Source of the DNA: a virus
Virus record (IMG/VR): IMGVR_UViG_3300006316_000001
Span: 1-64,000 of that record
DNA length: 64,000 nucleotides
Strand: one strand, 5' to 3'
Shown: positions 1 through 64,000 of the stretch, in pieces
How positions within the stretch are numbered: position 1 is the stretch's first letter
Layout: each line of letters starts with the position of its first letter
Program-made: the position numbers and the translations under genes
The notes under the pieces: generated by a model
Told to the model about the DNA's origin: nothing
Databases searched by the model: none
Seen by the model: only the letters and a program-made list of their open reading frames with translations

Positions 1-250
1 CAGTGCCTAGATTGAGTTCTTGGATCATTCGGCGAATGACCTTAACTGCTTTGTGGGTGGGTGCTGCGATACACACTGTTTTGTAGCGTGGAATCTTGTC
101 AACGATGTAATTCACCACCGTAGTCTTACCTGAACCTGCCGGACCGATGAGCGTATGGAACCTATTCTCTTGATCGAACCCTTTACTATTGATCGTGGTG
201 AGAATCTCATCTATACACTTTTCTTGCCCGTTCGTTAGCTTGAAGGACAT
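1..250 (-). CDS. dda: Dda-like SF1 helicase (5' part; runs off window)
   Basis: Manual translation MSFKLTNGQEKC...LIGPAGSGKTT...CIAAPTHKA: Walker A plus motif Ia of Dda/RecD. Confidence 0.8.
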   Translation of the reverse strand, partial: MSFKLTNGQEKCIDEILTTINSKGFDQENRFHTLIGPAGSGKTTVVNYIVDKIPRYKTVCIAAPTHKAVKVIRRMIQELNLGT

Positions 251-406
251 ACATATTCTCCTGTTTCTTCATCGTATGTGTGACCATGAATGACTAAACC
301 ATGGTCGGTTAAATGGATATGTAAATCCACATTATGTTCATCTTCGTGCTGTATGATACAAACTAAAATTATGAGTACGATAGTGTTGAATGTCAGTATC
401 TTCATT

Positions 407-763
407 TTAGTGAACCTCATCATCACATGCAAGAAGGGGTTCATCTGGACCAATTACCAAAGATAGTTTCAATTCAGCACAAACAACCACTAGGATTGAA
501 GATATGATGCCAACCATTTGGAATGATGGTACGTCAAATTCTTCATTCTCATCTTCTGGTGGAGACGGTAAAAGAAAACACACTTCTAGTACTGAGTCAA
601 CTGGAGGCTTGACGGAAAAGCTGGTGTTTCTGTATGTGAATAGTGAAATTTGATATCCTGGAGCTACCGTGATGTCACGCTCGTCAACCCAATCAACCAT
701 ACACATAGTTATTTGCTTGGTCAGTTCCATAAAATCGTATTGTTTCATGATGTCATCCTTCAA
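407..763 (-). CDS. hypothetical protein
   Basis: ORF in co-directional run. Confidence 0.55.
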   Translation of the reverse strand: MKDDIMKQYDFMELTKQITMCMVDWVDERDITVAPGYQISLFTYRNTSFSVKPPVDSVLEVCFLLPSPPEDENEEFDVPSFQMVGIISSILVVVCAELKLSLVIGPDEPLLACDDEVH

Positions 764-774
764 TTTCTGTCTAG

Positions 775-794
775 GGGGTTAAAACTAACCCCCC
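775..794 (-). other. stem-loop of the GGGGUUAR..UUAACCCC family, no promoter attached
   Basis: Minus-strand GGGGGTTAG-TT-TTAACCCCC between two ORFs. Confidence 0.55.
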
Positions 795-802
795 ATATTT
801 AG

Positions 803-2286: not shown

Positions 2287-3210
2287 TTATAATGCCGCAT
2301 ATTCAATAGCATCTTTGGCAGAGTCTAGCAATTTCTTTTGATCATACCACCCACCATCAAGATCATCCATTTGCTTGCCCATATCAGCCAATTCCTCAAC
2401 TGATAACGGGTAGCCAATCTTCTCAGCCTTACCACAAATCTTCAACATGAAGACATAGATAGCCTTATGGTGAGCGCCAGCCGGAGTCAAACGGTAATCG
2501 TCCATCATCCATTTATCAACAAACGGACAGTCACTTGAGGTGATGTCCATACTAGGAGTACCATGGTTGTTCTTGAACAGTTTCTGTTTCAGATCACGCA
2601 ATGGGTTTTTTATACGATATTTGTCAGATTCAGGGGGCATCGGGTATTTAGCGATTATTTGCTCCCAATTAAGGTCAATCCCAACGTTCTCCTTAAAAAT
2701 GTGACAGTAATCTGAACCCTTGTTAGTGTATCTAGCGGGAATATAGTGCATTCTTGATAGATCTTTGGTTTGATCATCAACCAAATCATCACACCAAGCA
2801 TTACATGCAAACCACAACTGCTTCAGTACCTCTTTGGGAGCTCGCTTATGTAAAGGGATACAAACACGAATCTTCAAGTGGTTCCTTGTGCAGTTTGCTG
2901 TACTATAGATTAGGTAGGAGAACGCCTTGAATTTCTCAACGATCTTCTGAGCATCATCAATACCCTTATCAATATCCAGTAGGACAAAGTCCCAAGCTGA
3001 CACATTTTCATTATTGCGCTTCATACCATCTTCAGCGTATATCGCACTAGAGATCAGCCCCTGAGTCTTATCATACTCATCGGCTGATGGTTTGTAGCCC
3101 TCAACCTCCGAGATTGAACGCATGTAACTGATGAAGGTTGGCCAATCGGCCAGTTGACATCGTTGCGGTTGGTTACTATAAAATCCGCTGAAAAATGAAA
3201 ATTCAATCAT
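2287..3210 (-). CDS. putative AEP (prim-pol)-type primase
   Basis: R..ENV...hhhDhD (VLLDID), YST..., RVCIPL, D..TKD.SR.HY motifs. Confidence 0.65.
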   Translation of the reverse strand: MIEFSFFSGFYSNQPQRCQLADWPTFISYMRSISEVEGYKPSADEYDKTQGLISSAIYAEDGMKRNNENVSAWDFVLLDIDKGIDDAQKIVEKFKAFSYLIYSTANCTRNHLKIRVCIPLHKRAPKEVLKQLWFACNAWCDDLVDDQTKDLSRMHYIPARYTNKGSDYCHIFKENVGIDLNWEQIIAKYPMPPESDKYRIKNPLRDLKQKLFKNNHGTPSMDITSSDCPFVDKWMMDDYRLTPAGAHHKAIYVFMLKICGKAEKIGYPLSVEELADMGKQMDDLDGGWYDQKKLLDSAKDAIEYAAL

Positions 3211-3827: not shown

Positions 3828-4259
3828 TTATGCTCCGGCTTCGAACTTTCTAATCTCTAAAATTGAATTGATGTGGTTGTTACGGTAGCGTAGACTGATA
3901 ATCATTTCCTCACAAATATCCATGAGCAATTTAGCATTATCAACCTTGGCGCGATACTCGCAAATTTTCACATCAGCGTCAAGAAGTTTGTTTAGATGGT
4001 CCATATTCTTGACGATACCATTCCAAGGCTCAGCTTTGTACGCAGCCGCATCAGCCTCACCATTATAGAAATCTCTTCGCTCAAGAGCTAATTGGGCGAG
4101 TTTTGTCTCACCCTTGATCATAGCTGACTTGTACTGATAGTTTAGGCGAAGATACTTTGACATCAGATTCATTGTTCGATTAATTTCGGTTTCGAGATTC
4201 ATACGATTGATATCTGAATCAACCTCAACCTGAGCCATCAACTCATCAAAGTTCAACAT
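3828..4259 (-). CDS. uvsY: UvsY recombination mediator
   Basis: Helical 143 aa with FYNGEA...YK.EP motif, near uvsW. Confidence 0.75.
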   Translation of the reverse strand: MLNFDELMAQVEVDSDINRMNLETEINRTMNLMSKYLRLNYQYKSAMIKGETKLAQLALERRDFYNGEADAAAYKAEPWNGIVKNMDHLNKLLDADVKICEYRAKVDNAKLLMDICEEMIISLRYRNNHINSILEIRKFEAGA

Positions 4260-4555
4260 TATCGTTCGCCTTGGTAGTGATCGTGGATGAATAGTGGTGC
4301 TTTGGTTTCAGTCATCTCACGAAGAAGGTGCTTTTCGCGAGTCTTTGAGATGAATGCCAATCTACCGCCTGAGTGAAACTCGCAGGTACGAGGTCCAACC
4401 ATTTTGTATGTGTGATGTTCAATCATCTGCATTGTGAATCGGAAAGCCCACTCGGCTTGATTAACATCATTACACACATAGTGTACGCGATACCCTTCCG
4501 AAGCTTTGATTACAGCCTCGAGTACCTTACGGAAAGTTTGTCCTGTTGCTCGCAT
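4259..4555 (-). CDS. hypothetical protein
   Basis: Translationally coupled between uvsW and uvsY. Confidence 0.6.
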   Translation of the reverse strand: MRATGQTFRKVLEAVIKASEGYRVHYVCNDVNQAEWAFRFTMQMIEHHTYKMVGPRTCEFHSGGRLAFISKTREKHLLREMTETKAPLFIHDHYQGER

Positions 4556-6117
4556 TATACTGCCTCCAAGTTGATTGTTGTGACGTTTGTTTCAAACTGT
4601 TGATCATAGTAGAACGAAAGACGTTTACGTCCGTGCTCTAGAGTGTAATTTTCATATGCTCCCACAGAATAATCGTCCACAAAGTCGTACATTGTAACAT
4701 AGTTGCCATGTTTTGATTTACGCAACAAACGGCCAACTGACTGTAGAACCTTGATTCTCGATTTGGAGGGATGGGCGAATAACATATTATGTAGGCGCTT
4801 AATAGAGATACCTGTGCTAAGTACGCCCAATGAACCGATAATGATACTTCCATCTTCTTTCTCCATCAACTGTCTAATATTCTCGCGCTCATCACTTCCG
4901 GTGGCGCCAGTGTATAGGTAAATCTTACGTTCAGGAAATGCTTTTCTCATCCAATGATATAGATTCTCACCGTGCTCAACCTTATTGATCATCAGAATCG
5001 TATTACCCTTCAAACTAGCAGCAAACTTCATCAGAAATTTATTACGAGCCACATCAGTGGTGATTTCATCAATTTCTTGCGCATATGTAACCTTTTGTCT
5101 AGTCGGCTTACCATTTTCGCCTATTGGACCTCTCGGAGCACTACGCATGTGTTTACATTGTTTTTCTGGATGTTTTATAAGACCCACATGAACCTTCAGT
5201 TGGGCAACCGTGCCAGCATCCATCAACTCCTTTGTTGTGATTACTGTCTTGATTGGTCCAAATAACCCCTGAAGGGTTAGACGGTTCGTTTTACATTCAC
5301 CATCATCCAAAGTACCAGTCAACCCTAGTCGGAATTTGGCGTTCTTACACTTCTCAATGATATTTATGATTGAGTTTGCTGTGGCTGTGTGAACCTCATC
5401 GCAACTGAAGAACTTGAATTTCTCAAACCATTCCTTTGGTGGCATACTCTTACGGTTAGATAGTGATTGGTATGTTGAAATCACAATACGCTTGTTAGTG
5501 TCTTTACTGACACCAGCCATGATACCATGACACTCAGATTCAGCGTTCCATGACATATCCTCTGACGAGTAGTCTTTGAAGTCACCTATCATTTGAGTAA
5601 CAAGCCCAACCGTCGGCACAACAACAAGGAACTGATCTTCTGGTCCAATTTTCTCCCACATTCTATACACAATGTATTGAATTAGTGACTTACCAGATGA
5701 TGTTGGTGAAAGAAGTATACAGCGTTGCAATTCAAGTGCGAAATGGGCAGCATCTCTTTGGTAATCGTACGGGTCAATCTTATTACCATCGCTATGTACA
5801 TTCAGACTTTCAACAAACTTCTCAAACTTCTCACGAGGGAGATTGAAACGCTTGATGGATGGATCAAGTGTGAATGGGATATTCATACGCTCACAGAATT
5901 GCTTTATTTCTGACCACAACCCTAAGTAGATTTCTCCCGACTCTTTTAACATTCGAACCTTACCATCCCAGCTTCGATTTCGAAACGCAGGGTGGAATTG
6001 GTAGTTGTCGGCCATGAAGCTCATGTGGTCACGAAGTCGAATGATTGTGTCGAAGTTTTCGCAGCTAATGTGACCATATGTCTCATCAATCTTGATGAAA
6101 TATACAGTATTGTCCAT
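4555..6117 (-). CDS. uvsW: UvsW SF2 helicase
   Basis: WDGK, PTSSGKS, DEVH, GLTGT, QSVGRLLR. Confidence 0.9.
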   Translation of the reverse strand: MDNTVYFIKIDETYGHISCENFDTIIRLRDHMSFMADNYQFHPAFRNRSWDGKVRMLKESGEIYLGLWSEIKQFCERMNIPFTLDPSIKRFNLPREKFEKFVESLNVHSDGNKIDPYDYQRDAAHFALELQRCILLSPTSSGKSLIQYIVYRMWEKIGPEDQFLVVVPTVGLVTQMIGDFKDYSSEDMSWNAESECHGIMAGVSKDTNKRIVISTYQSLSNRKSMPPKEWFEKFKFFSCDEVHTATANSIINIIEKCKNAKFRLGLTGTLDDGECKTNRLTLQGLFGPIKTVITTKELMDAGTVAQLKVHVGLIKHPEKQCKHMRSAPRGPIGENGKPTRQKVTYAQEIDEITTDVARNKFLMKFAASLKGNTILMINKVEHGENLYHWMRKAFPERKIYLYTGATGSDERENIRQLMEKEDGSIIIGSLGVLSTGISIKRLHNMLFAHPSKSRIKVLQSVGRLLRKSKHGNYVTMYDFVDDYSVGAYENYTLEHGRKRLSFYYDQQFETNVTTINLEAV

Positions 6118-6677
6118 TATTCAAGCCCCGTCTTATCACCAGTTTCCATGTATCCGGTTTTGATTCGTTGAGAGTTTTTGATGTGCTTTGCATAGAATGC
6201 GTCAATAATTTGTTGATCAGTCACACCAAGGTATTGTTTAGCCGCTTCGATGTAGCGTAGCAGTTGAATTGTGAATGCTCGTTTCTCAGTACAAGCCATC
6301 ATCTGGTTCCACGCCTCAACCATCTTAGTTAGGGGTTCAGAGTCAGAATTGTAGGTTTCTGAGAATGCCACATCATTCATGATCTTGTGATCAAAATCAG
6401 TGACAACAAAATCATCTGTTTTGTAACGGTGCAATACAACAGAAATACCGAACGCGATAGTATCTACGAATTCTTCAAGCTGCTTTTCCGGTACGGGTGA
6501 CCAAGAAGGTTTCCACCATACCCAATCTTCAGTGCACTCATCAAGAAATTCGCTGAATTCTTTTTGAGCAGCACAAATCCATTTGATGTGTGGCACCTCA
6601 CGCCAGTCTTGGCCATTGAATTCGCCATTGATACGTTCTTGACGCATGAATAGTGTGATTAGTTCTTCATTGGTCAT
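6117..6677 (-). CDS. all-alpha dimeric dUTPase/dNTP pyrophosphatase
   Basis: EFSEFLDE, WxWWK, LEEFVD motifs; next to dNMP kinase. Confidence 0.7.
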   Translation of the reverse strand: MTNEELITLFMRQERINGEFNGQDWREVPHIKWICAAQKEFSEFLDECTEDWVWWKPSWSPVPEKQLEEFVDTIAFGISVVLHRYKTDDFVVTDFDHKIMNDVAFSETYNSDSEPLTKMVEAWNQMMACTEKRAFTIQLLRYIEAAKQYLGVTDQQIIDAFYAKHIKNSQRIKTGYMETGDKTGLE

Positions 6678-7216
6678 CGTTTAAATCCCCAGTCAAGGTT
6701 GTTACAACAGAAATCGGCGAAATCGTACACACCAAGCTTATGGTGATCGAACTCATGTTCAACATTGAACGTTTCGATAATGTCTTCGGATGGATCACTA
6801 GTGGGATTAACCATATTGTTGATTCTGATTGTTTGGAATTTGAGGGACTCACACAGATCAAATTCGATTTGCTTACGAATATCAGTGATAAGAACCTTAC
6901 CCCCGTAACCATGAAGCTCAGAAACCAAGCGCTCAACATTATGGACGAATACTGCTGGATCCACTTCACGCAACTTATCAAGGCTCATCCACAATTCACG
7001 ATAAGTCAATCGATTCACGTTATGAGGGTGATCGATGATCTTCTCTTTATCTTCCGGCTTCACTTCAAGGTTTGGGGCTGACCAAGGATAGATGTTATCA
7101 GCAATCATCTTTAATTGATCAGAGAATGACACGCGAACAAAACCGTGTGCGCTGATAAGGTATGACGCCAAGTAATCTTTACCGCTTGATTTACGACCAG
7201 TTAATGCAACTAACAT
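6674..7216 (-). CDS. deoxynucleoside monophosphate kinase
   Basis: GRKSSGKD P-loop, SFSDQLK, ITDIR...E. Confidence 0.8.
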   Translation of the reverse strand: MLVALTGRKSSGKDYLASYLISAHGFVRVSFSDQLKMIADNIYPWSAPNLEVKPEDKEKIIDHPHNVNRLTYRELWMSLDKLREVDPAVFVHNVERLVSELHGYGGKVLITDIRKQIEFDLCESLKFQTIRINNMVNPTSDPSEDIIETFNVEHEFDHHKLGVYDFADFCCNNLDWGFKR

Positions 7217-7269: not shown

Positions 7270-8394
7270 TTACTTCAATTCAACAGCGAACTTACAGAAA
7301 GGTGAGTTCTTAACGGCATTACCGAAGTTGTCATCTTTAAGTTTTACAGTGAAGTTCGTTTCACCACACTTAGTTACGATGTATGCAACACAAACCTTCA
7401 TGTATTCAAACAATAGGTTATTTTTCACATCAACACCATTGCCTTTGAAGATTTCCGCCAATACATCAATACCAGCGTTGAACATTTCACCATTACCATC
7501 ATTGTAGTGTTCGTCACACATATCGACGCCACTTGAAAGGAATGCCAATAGTTCATTGAAGAAATGGAGGTCACCTTCAACCGAACCAGTTGCATTCAAG
7601 CGCATTAGGTTTCTTTCGTGGAAAGTGGCGGTCTTAGTATAGTGATCAACAGCATCTTGTGCTTGGCTCTCAGTGAAGTCGTATAGGTGAAGGTTCGTCA
7701 CGAAATGTGTGTATTCGCCAACATCAACCTTCTCACCAGTAACTTCAGCAACGTTCTTCGCCATAAGTTCTTGAAGGAATGACCACTCAAATACATTTAT
7801 GTTGAGGCAACCCCAAATAGCATCACCAGAACGTTGGAACACATTACAGTTCAGTAGGTAGCCATCACCTTCTTCGTTCGGTGTTGTGAAGAATACTAGC
7901 TCGTTGTTACATGGACGATCTTTAGTCTTACCAAAGTCATCACCAGTATCGCGCTCAAGAATTGCAACTTTACTATCAAGCTCAGGTAGAAGAATTTGCA
8001 CAACTGATTGGCGAGTGTGGATGCCGTCAGTTTTGAATACTTCAACAGCCTCATGAAGTTGATTGTACATATATAAACGTGGTCCATATGCGCCACGCCA
8101 CGTCTCACCATCATCACTGAAATCTTTAGCACGAGGTAAGAAAAACGATAGAAGTGGATCAATACGATCATTACCAGCCATCACCCAAATCGTTTCAGCA
8201 ATTTGCGCAAAGATGTTTGACTTACGCCCTTCAAGGCTTAGGTGACGAGAGCGTGGATCTTTAAGATTCAGTACAGCATTGTTGATGCATTTTATTGGTC
8301 CATTACGGCTAGGTTGCTCACGAGCCGTAAGAAGATTAGCGTATGAATTTAGTGCTAGTTCGTTGAATGTGTCGCCGTGAATTGGAGTAAACAT
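7270..8394 (-). CDS. thymidylate-synthase-family dUMP hydroxymethylase
   Basis: GAYGPRL, DRPC catalytic Cys, QRSGDAIWG..NIN (Asn = dUMP specificity), NLHLY. Confidence 0.75.
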   Translation of the reverse strand: MFTPIHGDTFNELALNSYANLLTAREQPSRNGPIKCINNAVLNLKDPRSRHLSLEGRKSNIFAQIAETIWVMAGNDRIDPLLSFFLPRAKDFSDDGETWRGAYGPRLYMYNQLHEAVEVFKTDGIHTRQSVVQILLPELDSKVAILERDTGDDFGKTKDRPCNNELVFFTTPNEEGDGYLLNCNVFQRSGDAIWGCLNINVFEWSFLQELMAKNVAEVTGEKVDVGEYTHFVTNLHLYDFTESQAQDAVDHYTKTATFHERNLMRLNATGSVEGDLHFFNELLAFLSSGVDMCDEHYNDGNGEMFNAGIDVLAEIFKGNGVDVKNNLLFEYMKVCVAYIVTKCGETNFTVKLKDDNFGNAVKNSPFCKFAVELK

Positions 8395-8472: not shown

Positions 8473-9153
8473 TTATGCGAACTCTGAGTCACGCTCCATC
8501 GCCATGAAGTATTTGAATTCAACATCTTCAACTTTAGCGGTGAATTGGATGATCTTCTTCTTGTTGATTTCAACATGGTAGTTCAGCGGAAGAAAGTCTA
8601 ACTTGTTACCTTTCTTGCTATGTTTCAGGAACACTTTGAACTCGCCAAGATCTTCTTCAGAAATCAACATAGAGTGGACGCGCTTAGGCTTCTCTTTATC
8701 AAGAGCCTTCAGATAAACCTTACCACCTTCACCAACGATAGCGATATCTTCAACACCAAGAGTAGTAGCGGCACTGATCACAGCCTTCAGTTTTTCTTCA
8801 GGTAGAGATAGCTCAATGTCAGCTTCAGGGAAGTTAACGTCACGCTCATCGTAGATCAGGTCTTCTTTGTCTGAGTAGTAGTACTCTTGAGAAGCGCCAG
8901 TAGCATCAGTGATAACAACTGACTTTTCGCCGAACTTGAAGTCGGGATCAGTGAACAACTTTAGAACCTTCAGGAAACCGGAAAGGTCATGAAGAGGAAC
9001 TTCTACAGGAAACTCGTCTTCAACTAGACAGCTGATCAGTGTTGTCTTCTTTTCGTTAACGGTCTTGATAACCTTGCCTGGAGCGATTACAATGTGTTGG
9101 TTGAATTTCGCGCAGTTTTGTAGAGCTGTGATTGTTAGTTCAGATAATTTCAT
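8473..9153 (-). CDS. 45: gp45-like sliding clamp
   Basis: MKLSE.T...L.N.A.FN, FP..V..HDL..FL, size and context. Confidence 0.85.
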   Translation of the reverse strand: MKLSELTITALQNCAKFNQHIVIAPGKVIKTVNEKKTTLISCLVEDEFPVEVPLHDLSGFLKVLKLFTDPDFKFGEKSVVITDATGASQEYYYSDKEDLIYDERDVNFPEADIELSLPEEKLKAVISAATTLGVEDIAIVGEGGKVYLKALDKEKPKRVHSMLISEEDLGEFKVFLKHSKKGNKLDFLPLNYHVEINKKKIIQFTAKVEDVEFKYFMAMERDSEFA

Positions 9154-9165: not shown

Positions 9166-10110
9166 TTATAGGTCAAAGATAGAAGTTTGTTGAACTGGGT
9201 TACAGTTCGGTTTAAATGCTGTCAACTCTTTCAAGAAAAGTGACATACGTTTTTGCATCATAAAGTTCATGGTTTTATTCATACCATGACGAGTTCGATT
9301 TTCCCAAGCACGTTCACAACCAAGTACAACACTTTCAGGGATGTGCTCAAGATTTAGAGAAATTAGTTTACGGTTACGGACGAAGCGAGCATACATCTCT
9401 TCACCAACATGGGTTCTGAATACTTCCTCACCCTTACCGAGTGCTTCATACGCCTCATCCTTCAGTTTCTGAGAAATTGGCGGAGCTCTGAACGCAGACA
9501 AACCTTCTTGCTTACGTTCGAATTTTACTTTGAAGAAGTCATCAGGACATCTTACTGACGGAACGCCATCTGACTCATCACCGTGCATTATAAGATCAAA
9601 TTCAAATCGCTTAGGATCATCAATCTTAACATACGGGATCTTGCGAATTTTATCACAAGGGCGTGTTTGTTTAACTAGAGGATTTTGGAGTAGTGCACCG
9701 AAATCCTTATCGTTTGAAATAATCAACAATGGTTCAGTTGTAGTTTGAGCCATCCAGCCGATGATATCATCCGCCTCAGCGCCTTGAACCTTCATTGTTG
9801 GGTAAGGGAAGTTATCTTTGATTTCTTCAGTGATTTGAGAAATCATAGTCATAATTTCTTCCCAATCGTTGTCTTCGTCTGGAGAATTCTTACGAGTCCA
9901 TTTATACAACGGGAATTCTTTGTTACGCCACGCTGATGAGTCAAAGATTAGATGCATCTCGCCCCATTCATCGCGGTACTTTAAGTTGTGAGCACGAATT
10001 GTATTCAGAACCAAGTGACGGATATACTCAAGGTGAGGTCGCTGACCGCCTTTGATATCAACGTGTAGGGCAGCGAATATAGTGCCCGAAAAATCAAGTG
10101 CAATTGCCAT
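9166..10110 (-). CDS. rnh: T4 RNase H-like 5'-3' flap exonuclease
   Basis: LDFS, WR...P.YK..R, EADDII, ISNDKDF, GD.SDGVP. Confidence 0.85.
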   Translation of the reverse strand: MAIALDFSGTIFAALHVDIKGGQRPHLEYIRHLVLNTIRAHNLKYRDEWGEMHLIFDSSAWRNKEFPLYKWTRKNSPDEDNDWEEIMTMISQITEEIKDNFPYPTMKVQGAEADDIIGWMAQTTTEPLLIISNDKDFGALLQNPLVKQTRPCDKIRKIPYVKIDDPKRFEFDLIMHGDESDGVPSVRCPDDFFKVKFERKQEGLSAFRAPPISQKLKDEAYEALGKGEEVFRTHVGEEMYARFVRNRKLISLNLEHIPESVVLGCERAWENRTRHGMNKTMNFMMQKRMSLFLKELTAFKPNCNPVQQTSIFDL

Positions 10111-46278: not shown

Positions 46279-46328
46279 ACACGAGAGAGACACTCGATAT
46301 GACCCAGAATGCCAGTTTAAGTGAATTT

Positions 46329-51346: not shown

Positions 51347-51401
51347 AATTAACAGAAGGTCATTTAGATGGCCTTTGATTAATTTTGCTAAGGATATTGT
51401 T

Positions 51402-54524: not shown

Positions 54525-55671
54525 AATGCAAACAAAAGGTTTTGACCAAAAGATTATCATCAAGTCCAAGGATGACGCACCGGAAGGTACATTCGTGGCA
54601 TATGGTAATGTGTTTGGCGTGAAAGATAACGCTGGTGACATCACAGTCAAAGGCTGTTTCTCAAACACAATTAAAAAGCATAAGTCTGAAGGCACAATGC
54701 CTCGCTTATTGGCGCAACACGGACATCGTATGATGCCTATTGGTATCATAACTGATATGATTGAAGACGAAAAAGGTCTTCGCTTTGAAGGTCAATTCTG
54801 CCTTGAGACGCAAGCTGGCTCTGAAGCCCACGCTCTTTGTAAGATGGGCGCAATCGATCAGTTTAGTATCGGTTACGTGACACTTGATCAAGAGATGACA
54901 ACTAAAGGTAATCTGTTAAAAGAACTTGACGTTGCTGAAATTTCTCTTGTGACTTTCGCTTGTAATGAACATTCAACATTAGTGGACGTTAAGTCAGCAG
55001 TGGAGAATGAAGAATTGACCCCGCGCCTTCTTCAGAAAGCGATCCGCGATGCATTCGGTCTTTCTAAACGTCAGTCTGAAGCAGCTATTAATGCGATAAA
55101 AGCGACTGAGCGTGAAGAAGTTGAAGAAGAATCCACCGAAGTTAAAGAACTTGGGTTGGACGAAGCGTTCCGCGTCAAAATGTCAGAAGCTCCGGAACTT
55201 ACTAAGTTCTCCGACGGACTTGAAGTCAAGTCCCTTGGCGATAAGTCTTTCCAACAGGTTCTTTCTGGAATCAAATCAGCTCTGGTTGAACCAATCGGTC
55301 ACTGGGATTTCTATCTTGATGATGTATTTGAATCTAAAGGATATGTCGAATTCTGTGACTACCGCGCTCGCAAGTACAAGCATGCTGAGTTCGAATGGAT
55401 GATGGACGACATGGGCGAAGTTCAAGTGACTTCCTTCAAGACTGGCACCAAAGAATACGGCACAACATTTGTTGTTGATGCTGAAGATGGCGTTAAAAAT
55501 AACGTTGACGACATCGAATCTAAACACGAAGATGAAGAAACTGTTGAATCATTAGCAGCGAAACTTCTTGGTGTTGATTTCGAGACCAAAGAAGAATCGG
55601 ATGTTGAAAATAACACAAAAGCCGATGATATTGATCTCGAAACTATTGATCTAACTGAATTGCTCAAGTAA
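54514..55671 (+). CDS. HK97-type prohead protease with long acidic C-terminal extension
   Basis: F.AYGNVF..D..GD....G.F, LL.QH....PIG, FSIGY, EISLVTF..N. Confidence 0.9.
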   Translation: MARKMQTKGFDQKIIIKSKDDAPEGTFVAYGNVFGVKDNAGDITVKGCFSNTIKKHKSEGTMPRLLAQHGHRMMPIGIITDMIEDEKGLRFEGQFCLETQAGSEAHALCKMGAIDQFSIGYVTLDQEMTTKGNLLKELDVAEISLVTFACNEHSTLVDVKSAVENEELTPRLLQKAIRDAFGLSKRQSEAAINAIKATEREEVEEESTEVKELGLDEAFRVKMSEAPELTKFSDGLEVKSLGDKSFQQVLSGIKSALVEPIGHWDFYLDDVFESKGYVEFCDYRARKYKHAEFEWMMDDMGEVQVTSFKTGTKEYGTTFVVDAEDGVKNNVDDIESKHEDEETVESLAAKLLGVDFETKEESDVENNTKADDIDLETIDLTELLK

Positions 55672-55772: not shown

Positions 55773-57026
55773 ATGTCTGCTATTGAACAAATCAAAGAAG
55801 CTCAAACACTAGCTGTTAAAGAAGCAACGGCTCCACTGAACGAAAAACTAGACCAACAAGAACTTGTCATCAAAGAACAAGGTGAACTGATCACATCACA
55901 AACTGAGCTTCTTGAAGAAGTTAAGCAAACTGTTGCTGATCTTGAATCTAAGCACTCTGATCTGGTTCCTGCTTCTGTGGAAGTGTCTGAAGTTAAATTC
56001 GACCGCAAAGTGCTGAACCAAAAGCTACGTGATCTATTCACTGGCGATAAAGGTGTTGACCTTGCGAATGTTGACACTAAAGCTCTTGCTGTTGGTGGTA
56101 CTGGCGGTGAAGCCCTAGCTATCGATGAAGAACTAGGTCGTCGCGTTATCGAGCGTTCTCGTGAAAACGTTGCAATCCTTGGTCTAATCGGTTCTAAGTC
56201 TGTAAGTTCTGTTAACTATCGTGAGATGGTTCTTCGTAACTATCCTGGTACTGCTAAAGGTATCGAGAACGTTGCTGGTACTGACTGGAATGCGACAGCG
56301 ACACAGACTTACGAACAGGTTGTGATGCAAGTTGCTAAGCAATACGCGAAGCCACAAATCACACACGAAGCTGCACGTGACCCACACATCGACCTAATGG
56401 CGCATCTTGAAACACTACTAGCTGAAGAAATGTCTCGTTACTGGGCTCTTCAAGTTCTATTCGGTGATGGTCGCCCTGATAACCTTCGCGGTATCCTATC
56501 AAGCAAACGCGCATCACTTGGTGCTGGCTCAGAATCTCGTAAAGATGCTGCTGAGCGTGACTTCGACTTCTACAAAGTTGTACCATCAACTGAAGCCGCT
56601 AAACTTGGTTCTGATCATGAAGAGATCATCGACAACATGATTGATCTGACTATCGAAGTTCCAACTCAGTACCTATCTAATTCATCTTACACGATGAACC
56701 GTCGTACTCTGGGTGTTCTTCGTAAGATCAAACAATCTACGGATGGTACTGATCTTCGTCCTCTGATCCAATTCGAAGCTGGTAACTTTACTCTTGTTGG
56801 CTATGGTGTTAACATCGAAGACTACATGCCTGATGTTGCGACTGACTCAATGCCGATCATCTTTGGTGATCTTTCTCGCGCATTCGTTCTTATCGACATC
56901 GATGACGAGTACCTAGTTGACCCATACACCACAGATGGTGTTGTTACGCTGAAGTCTACTTCTCGTAAAGGTGAAATTGTTCAGAACAACGATGCTATCG
57001 TTATTCTGTCGTGTGAAGCAGCATAA
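55773..57026 (+). CDS. major capsid protein (HK97 fold with delta domain)
   Basis: Follows the protease; coiled-coil N-terminus; GDG..N.RGIL, IIFGD, VDPYT; followed by a terminator. Confidence 0.9.
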   Translation: MSAIEQIKEAQTLAVKEATAPLNEKLDQQELVIKEQGELITSQTELLEEVKQTVADLESKHSDLVPASVEVSEVKFDRKVLNQKLRDLFTGDKGVDLANVDTKALAVGGTGGEALAIDEELGRRVIERSRENVAILGLIGSKSVSSVNYREMVLRNYPGTAKGIENVAGTDWNATATQTYEQVVMQVAKQYAKPQITHEAARDPHIDLMAHLETLLAEEMSRYWALQVLFGDGRPDNLRGILSSKRASLGAGSESRKDAAERDFDFYKVVPSTEAAKLGSDHEEIIDNMIDLTIEVPTQYLSNSSYTMNRRTLGVLRKIKQSTDGTDLRPLIQFEAGNFTLVGYGVNIEDYMPDVATDSMPIIFGDLSRAFVLIDIDDEYLVDPYTTDGVVTLKSTSRKGEIVQNNDAIVILSCEAA

Positions 57027-57047: not shown

Positions 57048-57071
57048 GGGAGACCTCGGTCTCCCATTTTT
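57048..57071 (+). terminator. intrinsic terminator after MCP
   Basis: GGGAGAC-CTCG-GTCTCCC-ATTTTT. Confidence 0.8.
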
Positions 57072-57426: not shown

Positions 57427-57451
57427 TTGAGTTTCCTGATTACAAAAAATG

Positions 57452-57489
57452 AAGCCCACTGGTCGCTTAGAGCACTAGTGGGCTTTTTT
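57452..57489 (+). terminator. intrinsic terminator
   Basis: AAGCCCACTGGT...ACTAGTGGGCTT followed by T-run. Confidence 0.8.
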
Positions 57490-57504
57490 GTTTAGGGGGT
57501 TCTG

Positions 57505-58066
57505 ATGAGAACAAAAATAATTTCTGTGGATATGTCGGAAGACATAGTAGGCACAGATGAAGCTATGCAGTCATTCTCGAATTGAGGATGACTACGACAT
57601 TGAGCTTGTTCAAATCCAAGTTGCTGCTGCGACTGATCTGGTTTCAAAATGGTTGAATCGGAAGTTGTTCCCTACTGATATGGTGGGTTCTATACCAACA
57701 TACCGCAAGAAGATTAATCTTCCTTATCCTCCAATACATTCCGTTTCGAAGGTCACTATTGAGGATGACGATGGGAATGAGATGACACTCACAGAAGGCG
57801 TTGATTATGTATTCGACGACATCAGTGAACAAGTTATTTTCCGAGTGATTCCCCCACAGAATACCCGCAATAACGTCAAGGTGCATTTCTCATGCGGCTA
57901 CCAAACCGCTGAAGAAGTTCCTCAAGCTATTAGGCATGCTATCAAACAGACATTCGCCACATTGTACGAGAATCGTGAAGATACCGTTATTGGTGCGTCT
58001 GTGAATGAAGTGCCACTCAAGACTCAACGTCTGATTGGTGCGTATCGTATTAAGGCGATCTCATAA
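57505..58066 (+). CDS. head-tail connector (gp6-like), apparently frameshifted near 57560
   Basis: HSRIE.D.D, AA......L.R.L, VP..I..AI.......YENRE; the RBS-led start at 57505 is out of frame by 1. Confidence 0.8.
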
Positions 58067-58398
58067 TGGCTGTTCGTGCAGGGAGACTGCGCCATAGATT
58101 AGAATTGTGGAAGTTGGCTGGGACAAAAGATAAGTTCGGCTCAATCACCAATGAGAAGGTGCGGGTTGGTACATATTGGTGTAACATTGAAAACACCAAG
58201 AATGAGACTGTTGGGACTGACGTAAGGCAGAACCAGAATAGTATCTCATTCATAACCAGATACAATCGAACATTGGAAACTCCGGACAATAACATGTACG
58301 TGGTATTCAAGGGCGTTGAGTATGACATTAATAGTGTCCTCAATCCAAGATTCTTGAATGAGCGTTTGGTTATAGAATGTGTAGCTAGAGGTAACTGA
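58066..58398 (+). CDS. head closure/head-tail joining protein
   Basis: AGRLRHR..L, D.FG, W..I, F..RY, Y.I.SV. Confidence 0.85.
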   Translation: MAVRAGRLRHRLELWKLAGTKDKFGSITNEKVRVGTYWCNIENTKNETVGTDVRQNQNSISFITRYNRTLETPDNNMYVVFKGVEYDINSVLNPRFLNERLVIECVARGN

Positions 58399-58399
58399 T

Positions 58400-59023
58400 A
58401 TGCCTTTTGAAGTCACGACGTCAGCGATTGGAATCAAAGATACGAACAAAGCCCTAGAGAACATGGCTGATGAACGCGGAAAGAAATGGAAGCGTGATGC
58501 ATTCATGAAATCAGGTTTCGAATCATTCCAACACGCAGTTCGAAAATCGCGCGCTAATGCCCCTGTTGGTGAAACTGGCCTCACTAAGAGAAGCATCACA
58601 TCAACGCGTGGGTATTATAACAAAAGAATTCGAACAACATCTTCTGGAAAGATAACCAAGCGCACAAGGAATGAATATTCAATTTCCACAACCCTTAAGA
58701 ATTCTTTTAATGCGAAAGCGCCTAAGAATCGAAAGGGGCAAGCGGTCAGATATCCATTCATGAATGAAGTTGGCGTTCCGGCTCAAACGTATACCCGTAT
58801 ATCCAAAAACGGAATGCTTCATTCAGTTACCCGAAAAGCTTCCCGAAACCCTTTGTTATTTCAACATAGGGCGTTGGGCACAACAGCAAATAAAGTAGTT
58901 AGTACTTGGAATCGAAAGTTCTCATTCTACCTAGATTTATATGCAAAATCGACCTATGCTACTTTGAGGGGTGCACACAGTGCATTCATTCGAACTGGTG
59001 GTGTTGGTTCTAAATGGAAATAG
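58400..59023 (+). CDS. HK97 gp10-like neck/tail protein
   Basis: NAPV..TG..KRSI motif and position. Confidence 0.65.
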   Translation: MPFEVTTSAIGIKDTNKALENMADERGKKWKRDAFMKSGFESFQHAVRKSRANAPVGETGLTKRSITSTRGYYNKRIRTTSSGKITKRTRNEYSISTTLKNSFNAKAPKNRKGQAVRYPFMNEVGVPAQTYTRISKNGMLHSVTRKASRNPLLFQHRALGTTANKVVSTWNRKFSFYLDLYAKSTYATLRGAHSAFIRTGGVGSKWK

Positions 59024-59027
59024 ACAT

Positions 59028-59411
59028 ATGGCATTGACATTGATACATGATAAGTTTAAAGTGCTTATTGATGGAATTACGGGAGGTGATGCATATCCTG
59101 TATTCATCCCTGAAGAAGCTTCATTTCCGGCATATATGTACTCGTTGGAAACGCTATCCCGCGATATCGAGAGTAACCTTCGTGATACCACAGTATCAGC
59201 TCACGTTTTTGGTGTACATGTTGTCGATAAGACATTCGCTGGTTGTCATGACCGAACGCAAAAACTTTTAGACGGCTTGGATCAGTACACTGAAGGATCT
59301 TCTGGATCTCTTTTGCTGGTTCTTGTTGAGGATGCTCAAGACGGGTTTGACCCTGATCTTGATGCATACACAAAGACACTCGTAGTTTCAGTACGAGTCA
59401 AGGAGATTTAA
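59028..59411 (+). CDS. tail terminator protein
   Basis: YP..IPE...FPA..Y motif; precedes tail tube. Confidence 0.7.
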   Translation: MALTLIHDKFKVLIDGITGGDAYPVFIPEEASFPAYMYSLETLSRDIESNLRDTTVSAHVFGVHVVDKTFAGCHDRTQKLLDGLDQYTEGSSGSLLLVLVEDAQDGFDPDLDAYTKTLVVSVRVKEI

Positions 59412-59412
59412 A

Positions 59413-59907
59413 ATGGCTTTAAAAGACATTTCTCTCGCAAACTTTACCACAGTATCATTCTTCGATCATGACGTTGGTAGTGGTGAGTTTGTTGAGATAG
59501 CAGAAGTGCAATCATTGACGCATCCCACGGATGAGCGAACAATTATTGAAGTTCCCGAGTTTGGAACTGATTATCCAACCAAGCGTGTTGGTTCGAGTTC
59601 AACGGGTAATGCTGAGGTTGTTGTTAACTTCAACCCTGCTGAACCGTCACATATTCGCATGCTCGAAATTTATGAGAAGCGTGCTCTTATGTTGTTCCGA
59701 ATCACAATCAACAGTGATAACGCTGGAACTGACAGTTCATTTTTCGAATTCAATGGACAAGTGGCATCGAAAACATCTTCAGGTGAATTTGACGCGATGA
59801 CTACATTGACATTCTCAATCACAGTTGATGGAAAATTGGGTGAGTGGGATACTCCACTTTCAACCCCTGCTCCAGATCCTGAACTTCCTGACGAAAATGC
59901 TCCATAA
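59413..59907 (+). CDS. tail tube protein, paralog 1
   Basis: EI..V.SL..P..E..IIEV.......K...G....G......NFNP....H; FEF.G.V. Confidence 0.8.
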   Translation: MALKDISLANFTTVSFFDHDVGSGEFVEIAEVQSLTHPTDERTIIEVPEFGTDYPTKRVGSSSTGNAEVVVNFNPAEPSHIRMLEIYEKRALMLFRITINSDNAGTDSSFFEFNGQVASKTSSGEFDAMTTLTFSITVDGKLGEWDTPLSTPAPDPELPDENAP

Positions 59908-59915
59908 GGGGGAAA

Positions 59916-60371
59916 ATGATGGCAGGTTTAACTGACATTTCTATTGGTAACTTTACCAAGGTGTATTACAACACCGGAACAACAGCATCTCCTACATGGG
60001 TTGAGATTGAGCGCATTCAAAGCCTAACGCATCCAACAGATGAAAAGAATATCGTGGAAGTTCCTCGATACGGTAGTATCTACCCTACCAAATTGGCTGG
60101 TTCTGCCTCAACTGGTAATGCTGAGATTGTTGTTAACTTTAATCCTGATAATTCAACACATCAATACTTGCTTGCTTCATACAAAAATGGTAGTTCTGAA
60201 GAATTCAAGATTGAAGTGAATGAAGACATTGACGGTACAAACGGTTCATATTTCCGTTTCGCAGGTCAGGTTGCTTCTAAATCATCATCAGGTGAATTTG
60301 ATTCCATTACCACAATGACATTCTCATTATCTGTGAATGGCGCTATTGGTGATTGGACACCTAACGCTTAA
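59916..60371 (+). CDS. tail tube protein, paralog 2
   Basis: Collinear with paralog 1 (QSLTHPTDE, STGNAE.VVNFNP, GQVASK.SSGEFD). Confidence 0.8.
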   Translation: MMAGLTDISIGNFTKVYYNTGTTASPTWVEIERIQSLTHPTDEKNIVEVPRYGSIYPTKLAGSASTGNAEIVVNFNPDNSTHQYLLASYKNGSSEEFKIEVNEDIDGTNGSYFRFAGQVASKSSSGEFDSITTMTFSLSVNGAIGDWTPNA

Positions 60372-60426
60372 ACTTTGTACATTAACCCAACTTAACCGTT
60401 GGGTTATTTTCGATGAGGAAACCATC

Positions 60427-60723
60427 ATGAGTGATATTCGTGACCGCCTTTTGGCAATCAAAGACAAAATTCATAAAGTGGAAGTTGGCGGTGTTGTCGT
60501 CTACTTTAAGCACCTAAAATCATCAAACGCATCAACCATCATGAAGATGAAGGGCACTGACAGTGACTCGTTAATCTTCACTATGTGCGCTTGTGAAGAA
60601 TCTGGTGAACCATTATTCACATTGGAAGAGATTGACGTTGTCAAAGAACTTCCACAAAATATAGTCAAAGCTGTAGTTACAGGCGCAGTGATGGGCAATG
60701 AAAAAAAGCCGCTCGGAGCCTAA
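60427..60723 (+). CDS. tail assembly chaperone G
   Basis: Position; C.E.GEPLF motif; slippery A AAA AAG at 60702-60708. Confidence 0.75.
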   Translation: MSDIRDRLLAIKDKIHKVEVGGVVVYFKHLKSSNASTIMKMKGTDSDSLIFTMCACEESGEPLFTLEEIDVVKELPQNIVKAVVTGAVMGNEKKPLGA

Positions 60724-61160
60724 TCGAAAACCCCGATAGGAAGTTTATGCTCCAGTTGGCAATAGCTTGGGGTCAACCCCTTGAGTATATTGAGAACTTA
60801 CCCTTTGAGGTTCTATCGGAATTTAAAGCTCTCAATGCATGGAGTCCATTCACTCCTGAACGGCAAGCTCATCAGCTCGGTGCTATAGCATCAATGCTCT
60901 CACATAAGGTCTACAAGAAGGGAAAATCCGCTAGTGAACTTTTCACATATCTTCAAGATGGCGTTCCAAGCTTCATGGAAGATGAGAGGGTCTATAAGGC
61001 TCGTTCTCTAATTCGAAGTGCGGGTGACGCGCCAGCTCATATACGCGAACAACAATTAAAAACAATAAAGACCGCTATTGCAGAAGAATTGGAAATTGAG
61101 AATAACAGCGATGACCCAGACCTGTATGTAATTAGGCAATTGACTAAATTGATTAACTAG
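60708..61160 (+). CDS. tail assembly chaperone T (-1 frameshift extension)
   Basis: The -1 frame is open from the slip site into ORF 60747..61160. Confidence 0.75.
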   Translation, partial: AARSLIENPDRKFMLQLAIAWGQPLEYIENLPFEVLSEFKALNAWSPFTPERQAHQLGAIASMLSHKVYKKGKSASELFTYLQDGVPSFMEDERVYKARSLIRSAGDAPAHIREQQLKTIKTAIAEELEIENNSDDPDLYVIRQLTKLIN

Positions 61161-61170
61161 GAGATCAGAG

Positions 61171-63510
61171 ATGTCCCAAAATCTATCACAGGTCAATATT
61201 GTCCTGAATGCCAATAGTGCTGAGTATGTGAGAAAACTGGCGCAGACTCAGAAGAAAACAAACACTGAACTGAAGAAGATGGAGAAGTCGTACAACAAAC
61301 TTTCTTCAGCTATTAGTCCAGTGACATCCACAGCATTAGCTGCAGGTGCCGCATTACTCAGCGTGGCTGAAAATGCCAGACAAAATGCAGTTGAGTTGGA
61401 ACGGAGCGCCTACGCTGCTGGTTTGACGGTTCCTGAATTTCAGGCAATGTCGCTCGCAGTTAAAACTGTTGGCATCAATACTGAGCAGTTGGGTTCGATT
61501 CTTGGTGACACCGAAGAGAAAGTTGCTGACTTCCTAACATCAGGTGGTGGTGGGTTTTTGGACTTTGTTGAGGTCATGGGTTTCACAAAAGAAGAAGCTC
61601 GTGAAGTTGCCAAAGAACTCCAAGGTCTTTCCGGACGAGACGTTTTAGTTGAGATGACTCGGCGAATGGAAGAGGCTGGCGTATCTGGTGAGAAAATGAA
61701 TTTAGCCCTAGAGGGTATGGCTTCAGATTCCCGCCACCTAATTCCGCTATTACGAGATAATGGTAGAGAATTGGAAACCATGGAAAAGCGCATGGGGTCT
61801 TTGGCTACAACTCTTGAAGAAGAGACTGTTGATGAACTGAACAAACTGGCGACTGTTACGACCATTGTTGCTAATAACATGTCCAACACACTAGCTACCG
61901 CGCTTGTTTCTGTTTCAGATTACTTGCTTGAAGCTGGTGAGAATGCTGCATTCTTTTGGGCTAGTCTACAGACAGGAACTTCGCAACAAGTTCTTTCTGA
62001 TATGGCAACTGTTTCTGACCAAATGAATGCAATCAAACGCGAGATTGGTGAACTTGAGGATGGTAATACATTTGCCAACTTCATAGGTCAGGGTGACGAA
62101 CAGATAGAAAAGCGTTTGGACCGTCTTGCTGAACTTGAGGTTGAGTATAAGAAATTGTCCGACCAGTACAAGTCACTCCAAGGTCTGGAAGTTCCTGAGC
62201 TACCTAGTGGTACAATTGAGGTCGACACTGTCATCAATCCACCGGAGCCTAAAACTCAATTCGATAAAGACCTTGAGAAAAAGGCTGGTGATATATCTAT
62301 GTCCAGCGGTTCATTACTTGGAGCGATCTCTCAAGAAGAAATCGAAGCCAGTAATAAACTCATGGAAGAAGAGATGAAGAAGTTGCAACAATACTCTTCT
62401 GACCTCAAAGATCTTTCTAATGAAAATGCGTTGAATCGAGCACTGATGGGTGGAAACCCTGATGAGATTCTTTCAGCGAAGAATGACCTTCTCAATAGCT
62501 CAATGCAACAAGAGATTGATTCTCTTGATAAGAGCCTGATGACCACTGAGCAGTATGAGGCTAATAAATCTGCCATTGAAGAGAAGTATCGCATACAACG
62601 TTCAGAACTGGCTCAAAGGGATAGTGATGAGCGTATGACGATCATGGAAGAAGAGATCCTGAAAATGGAACAATACTCTTCTGACCTTCAAGCGTTGACT
62701 CAGCAAAATGACCTTTCGCGTGCCATTATAGGTGGTAATCCTGAAGAGATTATTGCTGCCAAGGATGCTCTTCTTGAAACCTCAATGCAACAAGAGATTG
62801 ATTCTCTTGACCAGAGACTGATGACTACTGAACAGTTTGAAGCCAATAAAGCTGCCATTGAAGATAAGTACCGTCTGGCGAAACAGCAAGCTGATAAAGA
62901 TGCTGCTCAAAAGAAACATGATTTGGACAAAGCTTATCAGGACATGGAACTCACGGTTGCTAAGACTACCGTTGATAGTCTGGGGCAGATCAATAGCATC
63001 ATGGGTGAAGATAACCAAGTTCTCAATGCTGCTTTATTCGCGGCACAACAAGTTCTGGCAATCGCTCAGGTTACTATAGATACACAACGCGCTAGTATGG
63101 CGGCATTGGCCATTGACCCGACGGGTTTACTTTCAGCCAAAGCAGAGATGCAAGGTTCTATTGCGTTGGGTATAATTGGTGCGACATCTGTTGCTAAAGC
63201 AGCATCAGGTCAATTCCACGGTGGTATTGATGAACTTCCACAATCAATGGACAACAAATCATTTATGTTGAAAGCTGGTGAGCGTGTTGTTCAACCAAAA
63301 GCCAATGAAGAGTTGACTGAGTTCTTAGGTGCGCAGAAAGAGAATGGCTACCAGTCTGGTGGTCAACAAGTCATAAACGCACCACTGACCATTAATGGTT
63401 CAGTTACAGACGAAGCTTGGTTCAACAAAAAGCTTGTACAGCACCGCAACACAATAGCGGCTTCTGTTAAGAAAGTTGAGAAAGAGCGACCAAATAAATC
63501 TAGACGATAA
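61171..63510 (+). CDS. tape measure protein
   Basis: Long helical protein after the chaperones; I.L.AN...Y N-terminus; GQFHGG..GERVV. Confidence 0.9.
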   Translation: MSQNLSQVNIVLNANSAEYVRKLAQTQKKTNTELKKMEKSYNKLSSAISPVTSTALAAGAALLSVAENARQNAVELERSAYAAGLTVPEFQAMSLAVKTVGINTEQLGSILGDTEEKVADFLTSGGGGFLDFVEVMGFTKEEAREVAKELQGLSGRDVLVEMTRRMEEAGVSGEKMNLALEGMASDSRHLIPLLRDNGRELETMEKRMGSLATTLEEETVDELNKLATVTTIVANNMSNTLATALVSVSDYLLEAGENAAFFWASLQTGTSQQVLSDMATVSDQMNAIKREIGELEDGNTFANFIGQGDEQIEKRLDRLAELEVEYKKLSDQYKSLQGLEVPELPSGTIEVDTVINPPEPKTQFDKDLEKKAGDISMSSGSLLGAISQEEIEASNKLMEEEMKKLQQYSSDLKDLSNENALNRALMGGNPDEILSAKNDLLNSSMQQEIDSLDKSLMTTEQYEANKSAIEEKYRIQRSELAQRDSDERMTIMEEEILKMEQYSSDLQALTQQNDLSRAIIGGNPEEIIAAKDALLETSMQQEIDSLDQRLMTTEQFEANKAAIEDKYRLAKQQADKDAAQKKHDLDKAYQDMELTVAKTTVDSLGQINSIMGEDNQVLNAALFAAQQVLAIAQVTIDTQRASMAALAIDPTGLLSAKAEMQGSIALGIIGATSVAKAASGQFHGGIDELPQSMDNKSFMLKAGERVVQPKANEELTEFLGAQKENGYQSGGQQVINAPLTINGSVTDEAWFNKKLVQHRNTIAASVKKVEKERPNKSRR

Positions 63511-63530
63511 TATCTCCAAAGGAGGAGACT

Positions 63531-64000
63531 ATGGCTGATAATACACTTCCAGACAATCTGGTTTTCTCCGATGTTGTTTTGGACATTTTTATTCCGACTT
63601 TCACATCAGAAAGTTTGAGTCTGAAGAAAAGCAGTAAGCACCGTGGATTGCACAAATTGTCGGGATCAATCGATGTTACGATAGGCGGCTTAGACGAACA
63701 GCGAGCGTACATTGCATTCATCAATAAATGTCGTGGACAAAGCGCAACGTTCGAACTTGATTTGCCGTTACACTTTAGTAACGATGGTATTGTCGGTGTC
63801 GTCCAAACAACAGCATCATCGGGAGTTGGTGCTGTTGAACTTCAATTGGGTGCAACATTTTCCGGCTTTATACGAGCGGGTTCCATGTTCACTATTCTGA
63901 ACGACGATAAGACGTATGTTGTGGAAGAAGATGTTTTGGCTGGTGGAATAATGAAGTTCTTCCCTGCCATGCGCCTAGCTCATCCAACTGGCACTGTTAT
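63531..64000 (+). CDS. probable distal tail protein (runs off window)
   Basis: GGAGG RBS, MADNTLPDNL... open to the window end, follows TMP. Confidence 0.55.
   Translation, partial: MADNTLPDNLVFSDVVLDIFIPTFTSESLSLKKSSKHRGLHKLSGSIDVTIGGLDEQRAYIAFINKCRGQSATFELDLPLHFSNDGIVGVVQTTASSGVGAVELQLGATFSGFIRAGSMFTILNDDKTYVVEEDVLAGGIMKFFPAMRLAHPTGTV

Follow-up and report, generated by a model that had tools for sequence, protein, structure and literature searches.

How does a phage that combines the replisome of T4 with the virion of a siphovirus transcribe its late genes? The question is raised by the virus record IMGVR_UViG_3300006316_000001 of IMG/VR, 106,815 bases long, of which the first 64 kb (60%), positions 1 to 64,000, form the window analysed here. 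In T4, late transcription is tied to replication by way of the sliding clamp, the textbook example of such coupling of gene expression. This phage has the clamp, and with it a whole T4-type replisome, in the company of a single-subunit RNA polymerase (RNAP) of the T7 family and an HK97-type head with a non-contractile tail. A model that had read the window without database searches (hereafter the sequence-only reading) proposed that the RNAP may replace clamp-coupled late transcription. On balance we favour this proposal: the single-subunit polymerase would stand in here for gp55, gp33 and the gp45 clamp of T4. Support comes from where a T7-like promoter motif lies, and from the lack of gp55 and gp33.

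Three modules on one circle

The genome is laid out as two divergent arms. The minus-strand arm runs from 45.9 kb through position 1 to 86.7 kb and holds, in approximately 66 kb, small early genes, a sigma factor, the RNAP, the T4-type replisome, and genes for nucleotide metabolism and DNA modification. The plus-strand arm, approximately 40 kb (46.3–86.7 kb), holds the virion and lysis genes. The replication and recombination set that the sequence-only reading had assigned to T4 genes 43, 44/62, 45, 32, 59, 41, rnh and uvsX/Y/W is complete; Pfam and PHROG profiles recover every member, and a primase, at E-values between 1e-29 and 1e-99; every one of these genes is on the minus strand. It includes an uninterrupted family B DNA polymerase of the gp43 type (PolB; 13188–15845; Pfam and tblastn), the clamp loader proteins gp44 (16904–17836; phrog_168, 1e-99) and gp62 (16425–16904; PHROGs), the sliding clamp gp45 (8473–9153; phrog_223, 2.4e-49), and a gp41-type replicative helicase (24651–26069; DnaB_C) that is annotated in the relatives as a primase-helicase subunit. 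The gp61-type DNA primase (2287–3210; phrog_9765, 1.5e-60), the helicase loader gp59 (11479–12093; phrog_269, 4e-43), the single-stranded DNA binding protein gp32 (10372–11472; PF08804, 1.2e-29) and a T4-type RNase H (9166–10110; 5_3_exonuc_N and RNaseH_C) accompany them, as do the recombinase UvsX (26080–27141; phrog_97, 1.8e-65), the mediator UvsY (3828–4259; phrog_231, 2.9e-29) and the helicase UvsW (4555–6117; UvsW_N, ResIII and Helicase_C). Within the gp32-like gene, a 48-nt unit occurs three times head-to-tail (10469–10610), and produces a 16-residue triple repeat in the protein. The Dda-like helicase that had also been claimed is real (phrog_325, 2e-90 for the gene), but only its N-terminal 83 codons, with the Walker A sequence GPAGSGKTT, lie in the window (1–250, minus strand), because the gene crosses the circular junction; the remainder is at 105436–106511 of the record.

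The RNAP gene (27807–30164, minus strand) is on the strand of the replisome, a short way upstream of uvsX and gp41. Its product, 785 aa, matches PF00940 at 1e-69 and aligns with residues 247–883 of T7 RNAP. The equivalents of D537, K631, Y639, H784 and D812 are kept, and so is the C-terminal FFFA; the description of the enzyme as intact was correct.

The virion genes are all on the plus strand. A Terminase_1-type terminase large subunit (TerL; 51375–53159) is followed by the portal (PF04860; 53184–54524), an S78 prohead protease (54490–55671), and an HK97-family major capsid protein (MCP; 55773–57026; PF05065, 5.9e-34). Genes for a head-tail adaptor, Hc1, a tail terminator, two tandem major tail proteins, a chaperone and the tape measure (61171–63510) occupy 57557–63510, and a lambda J-like tip and fibres are encoded farther along the virion arm, outside the window. 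The major tail protein genes (59413–59907 and 59916–60371) are paralogs, both of phrog_158; the relatives have one. No match to tail sheath (PF04984) occurs anywhere in the genome. PF05065 capsid, S78 protease, PF04860 portal, Terminase_1-type TerL, major tail protein and tape measure, without a sheath, make this an HK97-type siphovirus module, known from its genes, and agree with the head and non-contractile tail already proposed.

The combination is not a one-off. When 50,697 phage records were searched by tblastn, PolB exceeded 60% identity in four only—Vibrio phages henriette 12B8 (NC_021073), 2.058.O and 3.058.O (MG592662/72) and V6Aob (PV454620)—and the same four were the best matches to TerL. 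These cultured phages, and contigs in IMG/VR, have the same gene set, and they are unclassified; the mosaic is that of a lineage, some of whose members are in culture but, it seems, not yet described. Henriette and V6Aob were compared in full; 2.058.O and 3.058.O were matched through PolB, TerL and RNAP. Three of the uncultured contigs enter the comparisons below: IMGVR_UViG_3300049783_001426 (G001), IMGVR_UViG_3300025712_000004 (G002, 97.8 kb) and IMGVR_UViG_3300023313_000142 (G003). Outside this group, the nearest matches to PolB are in T4-like cyanomyoviruses (38% to their gp43, over the full length of PolB); TerL is closest to lambdoid or HK97-like siphoviruses (35–37%), and the RNAP to Autographiviridae (24–29%). 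Because the three modules point in three directions, 'three-way', as the sequence-only reading called the mosaic, is a fair label, yet one that describes an existing lineage.

Might the record instead be a chimera, assembled from the DNA of two or three phages? It is metagenomic, and its final 111 nt, rich in GC, are unrelated sequence, which would fit. Against this, positions 1–193 repeat positions 106512–106704, with one mismatch, and close a circle of 106,511 bp; a promoter cassette described below, present in 20 copies, occurs either side of the closure, and a promoter-like 20-mer occurs on both arms. The GC content is even over the window (0.39–0.45). Henriette, V6Aob and contig G002 have all three modules, in the same order except for the polymerase gene, and the PolB, TerL and RNAP of 2.058.O and 3.058.O match as well. 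Since the circle closes, and since cultured and uncultured relatives have the same two-arm layout, misassembly, already thought improbable on account of the shared 20-mer, is excluded, and we give the chimera next to no credence. CheckV rates the whole record complete. IMG/VR labels it linear, despite the terminal repeat, and the last 111 nt are probably an assembly tail. The record is the circularly closed genome, 106.5 kb, of a virulent marine siphovirus, whose host is probably a Vibrio.

Putative promoters and late transcription

The 20-mer, CAATAGAAGGCTAATAGGAA, occurs exactly at +46329, +47598 and −30471, and at 17 of its 20 positions at −16445: four matches, compared with 0.00 expected. 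All four copies are co-oriented with the genes downstream. The first (46329–46348, plus strand) stands at the head of the late arm, with a paralog of the capsid gene behind it, and the second (47598–47617, plus strand) is followed by endonuclease VII, two tRNAs, an HNH endonuclease, the terminase and the remaining virion genes. The third (30452–30471, minus strand) lies ahead of the RNAP operon, which comprises an 88-aa gene and the RNAP; the degenerate copy (16426–16445, minus strand) lies upstream of the genes for MazG and PolB. The 9-nt cores of the motif have no further occurrence in the 106.8 kb. Conservation is contiguous, without −35/−10 structure, and the 20-mer ends in TAATA and then GGAA, an end that we take to resemble the −4 to +4 part of T7, T3 and SP6 promoters. 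The 20-mer is likely to be a T7-type promoter for this RNAP.

The signals of T4 late transcription, in contrast, are missing. Profiles for the late sigma gp55 and the co-activator gp33 (phrog_234 and phrog_254) find no match at E ≤ 1 in this genome, in V6Aob or in henriette. The T4 late-promoter motif, TATAAATA, has five copies in the genome; the virion arm has none on its plus strand, and sigma-70-like sites at the head of that arm are not above chance (20 found, 24 expected). Another candidate late motif, TTATAA[TC]CCC, was considered, and dropped when just two intergenic copies were found on the late arm.

The other arm has putative promoters of a different kind. Twenty near-identical cassettes lie in the genome, all on the minus strand of the early and replication arm; the virion arm has none. 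Thirteen, each of 32 nt, are in the window, the first at 45897–45928 and the others starting at 1150, 10169, 13094, 17990, 18745, 22179, 27733, 32013, 33136, 36289, 39139 and 43572. They occupy intergenic gaps, two copies falling inside automatically called open reading frames (ORFs), and their parts keep a fixed order. An A-tract, with an intrinsic terminator ahead of it in at least 12 copies, leads to CTTTACTT, which a 16-nt spacer separates from TATAAT; farther downstream come a brief conserved segment, a 5′ hairpin and a ribosome site. The −35 and −10 blocks agree in all 20 copies and the middle of the spacer in only 9–15 of 20, the signature of a sigma-70-type promoter. Promoters of the phage RNAP, which the TATAGGG in the cassettes might suggest, are a less likely reading, given that conservation is concentrated in the −35 and −10 blocks and the spacer varies. 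In combining terminator with promoter, the cassettes resemble PeSL cassettes and the early promoters of T4. Early genes, the operon of the sigma factor, the operon that contains the RNAP, and most operons for the replisome and for nucleotide metabolism are preceded by one.

The sigma factor itself was missed by the sequence-only reading, and is a second candidate for late control. It is an RpoS/RpoD-like protein of 308 aa, encoded in the first early operon (44015–44941, minus strand), with Sigma70 regions 2 and 4 (phrog_351, 4e-38). The closest models are those of RpoS and RpoD, and region 4.2, which in known sigma-70-type factors reads the −35 element, closely matches that of RpoS. A sigma of this housekeeping or stationary type is therefore expected to read cassette-like promoters, not a novel late class. 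It is absent from the four relatives searched (G001, G002, V6Aob and henriette), and we know of no other phage that has both a sigma-70-family factor and a T7-type polymerase.

Transcription in this phage might proceed, then, in the following way. Host polymerase would read the cassettes and express the early and replication genes, the phage RNAP among them; host sigma-70 is expected to act first, and the RpoS-like sigma of the phage may join it. The phage RNAP would then start at the 20-mers, at the GG that follows TAATA if the analogy with T7, T3 and SP6 promoters holds. It would amplify its own operon, boost MazG and the DNA polymerase, and transcribe the whole virion arm from the two promoters at its head. 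A strong hairpin with a T-run lies directly after the capsid gene (57048–57065, plus strand) and a second hairpin at about 57451–57495 (z-scores −3.2 and −5.7); acting as partial terminators, these would raise the relative dosage of capsid, as T-phi does in T7. The gp45 clamp would be left with replication only. The authors who described Shewanella phage KASIA drew the same late-transcription inference from a polymerase gene upstream of a siphovirus structural module (PMC8541194).

Several points weigh against this account. The functions of the 20-mer and of the cassette as promoters are deduced from sequence, and the relatives lend the 20-mer no comparative support: exact-repeat and fuzzy searches for a matching promoter motif in G001–G003, henriette and V6Aob gave nothing usable. 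An arm of 40 kb that contains strong intrinsic terminators has just two copies of the promoter. The TATAGGG downstream of the cassette −10 may be a second class of start for the phage RNAP, and the phage sigma is a candidate for an alternative late regulator. The proposal as first made, then, is backed by the lack of gp55 and gp33, and by the position of T7-like 20-mers at the head of the late arm; its scope shrinks, because 20 sigma-70-type cassettes serve almost the whole of the early and replication arm, and the RNAP takes over only part of the programme. A 17-mer version of the promoter, scanned against IMG/VR, had one match, within a coding region and probably due to chance.

Perhaps the RNAP takes over less still. 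It might serve a few operons only—its own, MazG–PolB, the capsid paralog, and endonuclease VII with the tRNAs—and leave most virion genes to the host core polymerase, directed by the phage sigma or by a late factor that we have not recognized. The sigma is a full one, with conserved regions 2 and 4.2, in the first operon; the 20-mer has only three or four copies; and the capsid gene is followed by strong terminators. Against this, sigma-70-type sites on the late arm do not exceed chance, and a sigma of group 1/2 type should read the −35/−10 cassettes, which sit on the other arm only. Moreover, four relatives of the same architecture have no sigma factor at all, so it is not needed for the basic programme. 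We consider this arrangement unlikely, if less so than one in which the RNAP is not a late transcriptase, and mainly primes or activates replication, or opens the DNA, at an origin between the arms. T7 RNAP plays such a part at the primary origin of T7. The divergent junction (45929–46328, no strand), 400 nt of non-coding sequence, contains repeated ACGATCA and CACAG motifs as well as CA/CG-rich runs; the cumulative GC skew has its minimum there, and the junction is a candidate replication origin or packaging site. One copy of the promoter abuts it, and the RNAP gene heads the replisome genes, adjoining uvsX. Such a role would leave the 20-mers before the RNAP operon and before endonuclease VII and the terminase unexplained, and replisomes of the T4 type, which use recombination and R-loops to start, need no polymerase dedicated to the task. 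It is also compatible with late transcription by the RNAP, rather than exclusive of it, and as a replacement for that reading we think it has very little in its favour.

The polymerase clade and its relatives

The closest cultured phages are related to this one at a distance. Henriette and V6Aob have genomes of approximately 100 kb in two divergent arms, as here, and each shares 43–45 of the 148 ORFs of this phage (48 are shared with at least one), collinearly and at 35–74% identity. Their T4-type replisome is the same (aa identities of 62–64% in PolB, 73–74% in UvsX, 55–58% in gp41 and 60–64% in UvsW), as is their HK97-type virion (53–54% in TerL, 60–63% in the portal, 58–59% in MCP); in the two Nahant phages, 2.058.O and 3.058.O, PolB is 63% identical. 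Unlike this phage, the henriette group has a PolB split by an inserted ORF, an anaerobic ribonucleotide reductase, SbcCD and a Dam methylase, and lacks the sigma factor, the capsid paralog, the kinase set for 5-hydroxymethyldeoxyuridine (5-hmdU) and the 20-copy cassette. Many HNH genes are dispersed over the replisome arm of V6Aob and henriette. The phage is a distant relative of henriette 12B8, 2.058.O and V6Aob, at about genus-to-family distance; what sets it apart from the known relatives is the clade and orientation of the RNAP, the sigma factor, the capsid paralog, and the gene set for thymidine hypermodification.

The henriette group, too, has a single-subunit RNAP that adjoins uvsX at the arm junction. 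It is only 25–26% identical to the one described here, approximately 70 aa longer (855 aa), and encoded at the same junction on the opposite strand, where it is the first gene of any size on the virion arm. Three records, those of henriette and the two Nahant phages, annotate it as a hypothetical protein, and only the fourth, that of V6Aob, as an RNAP. Because other core genes are 55–74% identical, the RNAP, like the ribonucleotide reductase, is discordant. Its closer kin are elsewhere. Relatives at 42–68% identity form some 30 clusters at 90% identity, and about 12 clusters at 50% score well above the drop to approximately 270 bits that is typical of Autographiviridae. Members of this clade occur on contigs of 85–114 kb. 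In contigs G001–G003 the RNAP is 46–49% identical, and the gene is placed and oriented as it is here, a little ahead of uvsX and gp41 on the strand of the replisome; the 20-mer is not shared. G002 has both a T4-type replisome (PolB 55%) and an HK97 siphovirus module (TerL 55%, MCP 48%). Scans of metagenome contigs with the RNAP and its 68% relative, and of viral contigs with the 68% relative, added nothing new.

These polymerases were placed in a quick maximum-likelihood tree with SH-aLRT supports. The clade of this phage is monophyletic (99) and separate from the Autographiviridae representatives, and the nearest named branch to it is Colwellia phage 9A (99). This clade, 9A and the henriette clade lie on one side of a branch supported at 95%; T7, LUZ100, RsoP1EGY, CRP-125, RHEph27 and the Xp10-like CP1 lie on the other. 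The clade of this phage and that of henriette are not sisters. At identities of 24–30%, and with a long henriette branch, the deep nodes are suggestive only. A tentative history can be proposed, in which a lineage with a T4 replisome gave up clamp-coupled late transcription, or was never equipped with it, and has its virion genes transcribed by a T7-type RNAP. To this the present phage would have added a sigma of its own, such that host sigma-70, phage sigma and phage RNAP act in series; and, with the RNAP of the henriette group only 25% identical and inverted at the same locus, the enzyme would have been replaced in place, or have diverged unusually fast. We put this forward as a possibility, with more doubt than conviction.

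Other phages combine some of these parts. Colwellia phage 9A (Franklinbayvirus; approximately 105 kb) and KASIA are marine siphoviruses with a T7-family RNAP beside the point where replication and virion genes diverge, and have been published as 'rare siphoviruses with an RNA polymerase' (PMC8541194). They use a family A DNA polymerase I, have no clamp, clamp loader, gp32, gp59 or UvsXY, and share no virion protein with this phage at E < 1e-5; the RNAP is 24% identical. The Xp10 genome is approximately 44 kb, and its replication genes are not known to be of T4 type. Xp10 and its relatives (CP1, Xop411 and OP1) are siphoviruses with a T7-like RNAP among their replication genes, transcribed in part by the host polymerase (PMC8541194; also established knowledge). 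In CP1 this RNAP groups with the Autographiviridae, not with the present clade. Autographiviridae proper are podoviruses of approximately 40 kb with a family A replisome; this phage has 106.5 kb, a tape measure, major tail proteins and a PolB replisome. With T4 and T4-like myoviruses (Straboviridae and cyanomyoviruses) it has in common the core replisome, the recombination set and endonuclease VII, whereas their contractile tail, T4-type capsid, T4-type terminase, gp55, gp33 and TATAAATA late promoters have no counterpart here.

Phages of this build have been in the databases for some time. The first of the four GenBank records has an accession number of the 2010 series, henriette and 2.058.O are unclassified Caudoviricetes in the NCBI taxonomy, and the record of V6Aob gives no lineage below 'Viruses'. 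The Nahant data paper gives 2.058.O only as 'Sipho' (PMC6029569), and a literature search turned up no description of the henriette group or of this combination of genes. A whole group of marine siphoviruses of approximately 100 kb is thus already on deposit, with an RNAP mostly labelled hypothetical. The group keeps the clamp and the whole replisome without gp55 or gp33, and with a T7-type RNAP; it is a natural setting in which to ask whether clamp coupling can be dispensed with, and henriette, whose host is V. splendidus 12B8, V6Aob, whose host is Vibrio harveyi, and the Nahant isolates are cultured and available for the experiment. The deep-branching polymerase and its putative promoter, as a new pair, are also a candidate tool for orthogonal expression.

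Other genes of the two arms

The late arm opens with the diverged HK97-family MCP paralog (46441–47565, plus strand), directly behind the first copy of the 20-mer. It is approximately 30% identical to the capsid proteins of the relatives, in which it has no separate counterpart. A gp49-type endonuclease VII follows (47856–48335, plus strand; phrog_423, 2.1e-30), and then, all on the same strand, tRNA-Asn (48576–48651), tRNA-Met (49196–49273), and an HNH endonuclease that adjoins the terminase genes (50015–50410). The approximately 540 nt between the tRNAs (48652–49195) have no Rfam match at E ≤ 0.1, and the sole sizeable open frame there, of 104 aa and reaching into the tRNA-Met gene, has no PHROG match.

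On the minus strand, the 88-aa gene between the 20-mer and the RNAP gene (30167–30433) has no PHROG family; an inhibitor of host polymerase was suspected, and a low-confidence structure model (Atlas) gave the idea no footing. The MazG-like nucleotide pyrophosphatase (15917–16414) is the first gene behind the 17/20 copy of the promoter. Both subunits of a ribonucleotide reductase were identified by Pfam, the small one at 20247–21419 and the large one at 22272–24593. Genes of the thymidine-modification type lie at 1189–2178, 6117–7216 and 7270–8394. They include a 5-hmdU DNA kinase (PF18723, 6.8e-48), a dUTPase_2 protein, a dNMP-kinase-like protein, and a divergent thymidylate-synthase-like protein that is possibly a dUMP hydroxymethylase; together, they point to hypermodified thymidine in the DNA of this phage. 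Neither henriette nor V6Aob has a counterpart of the kinase or of the thymidylate-synthase-like gene. A fusion of a PIN domain with a PhoH-like ATPase (18838–20190, minus strand), in contrast, is kept in both of these phages, at 53–57% identity.

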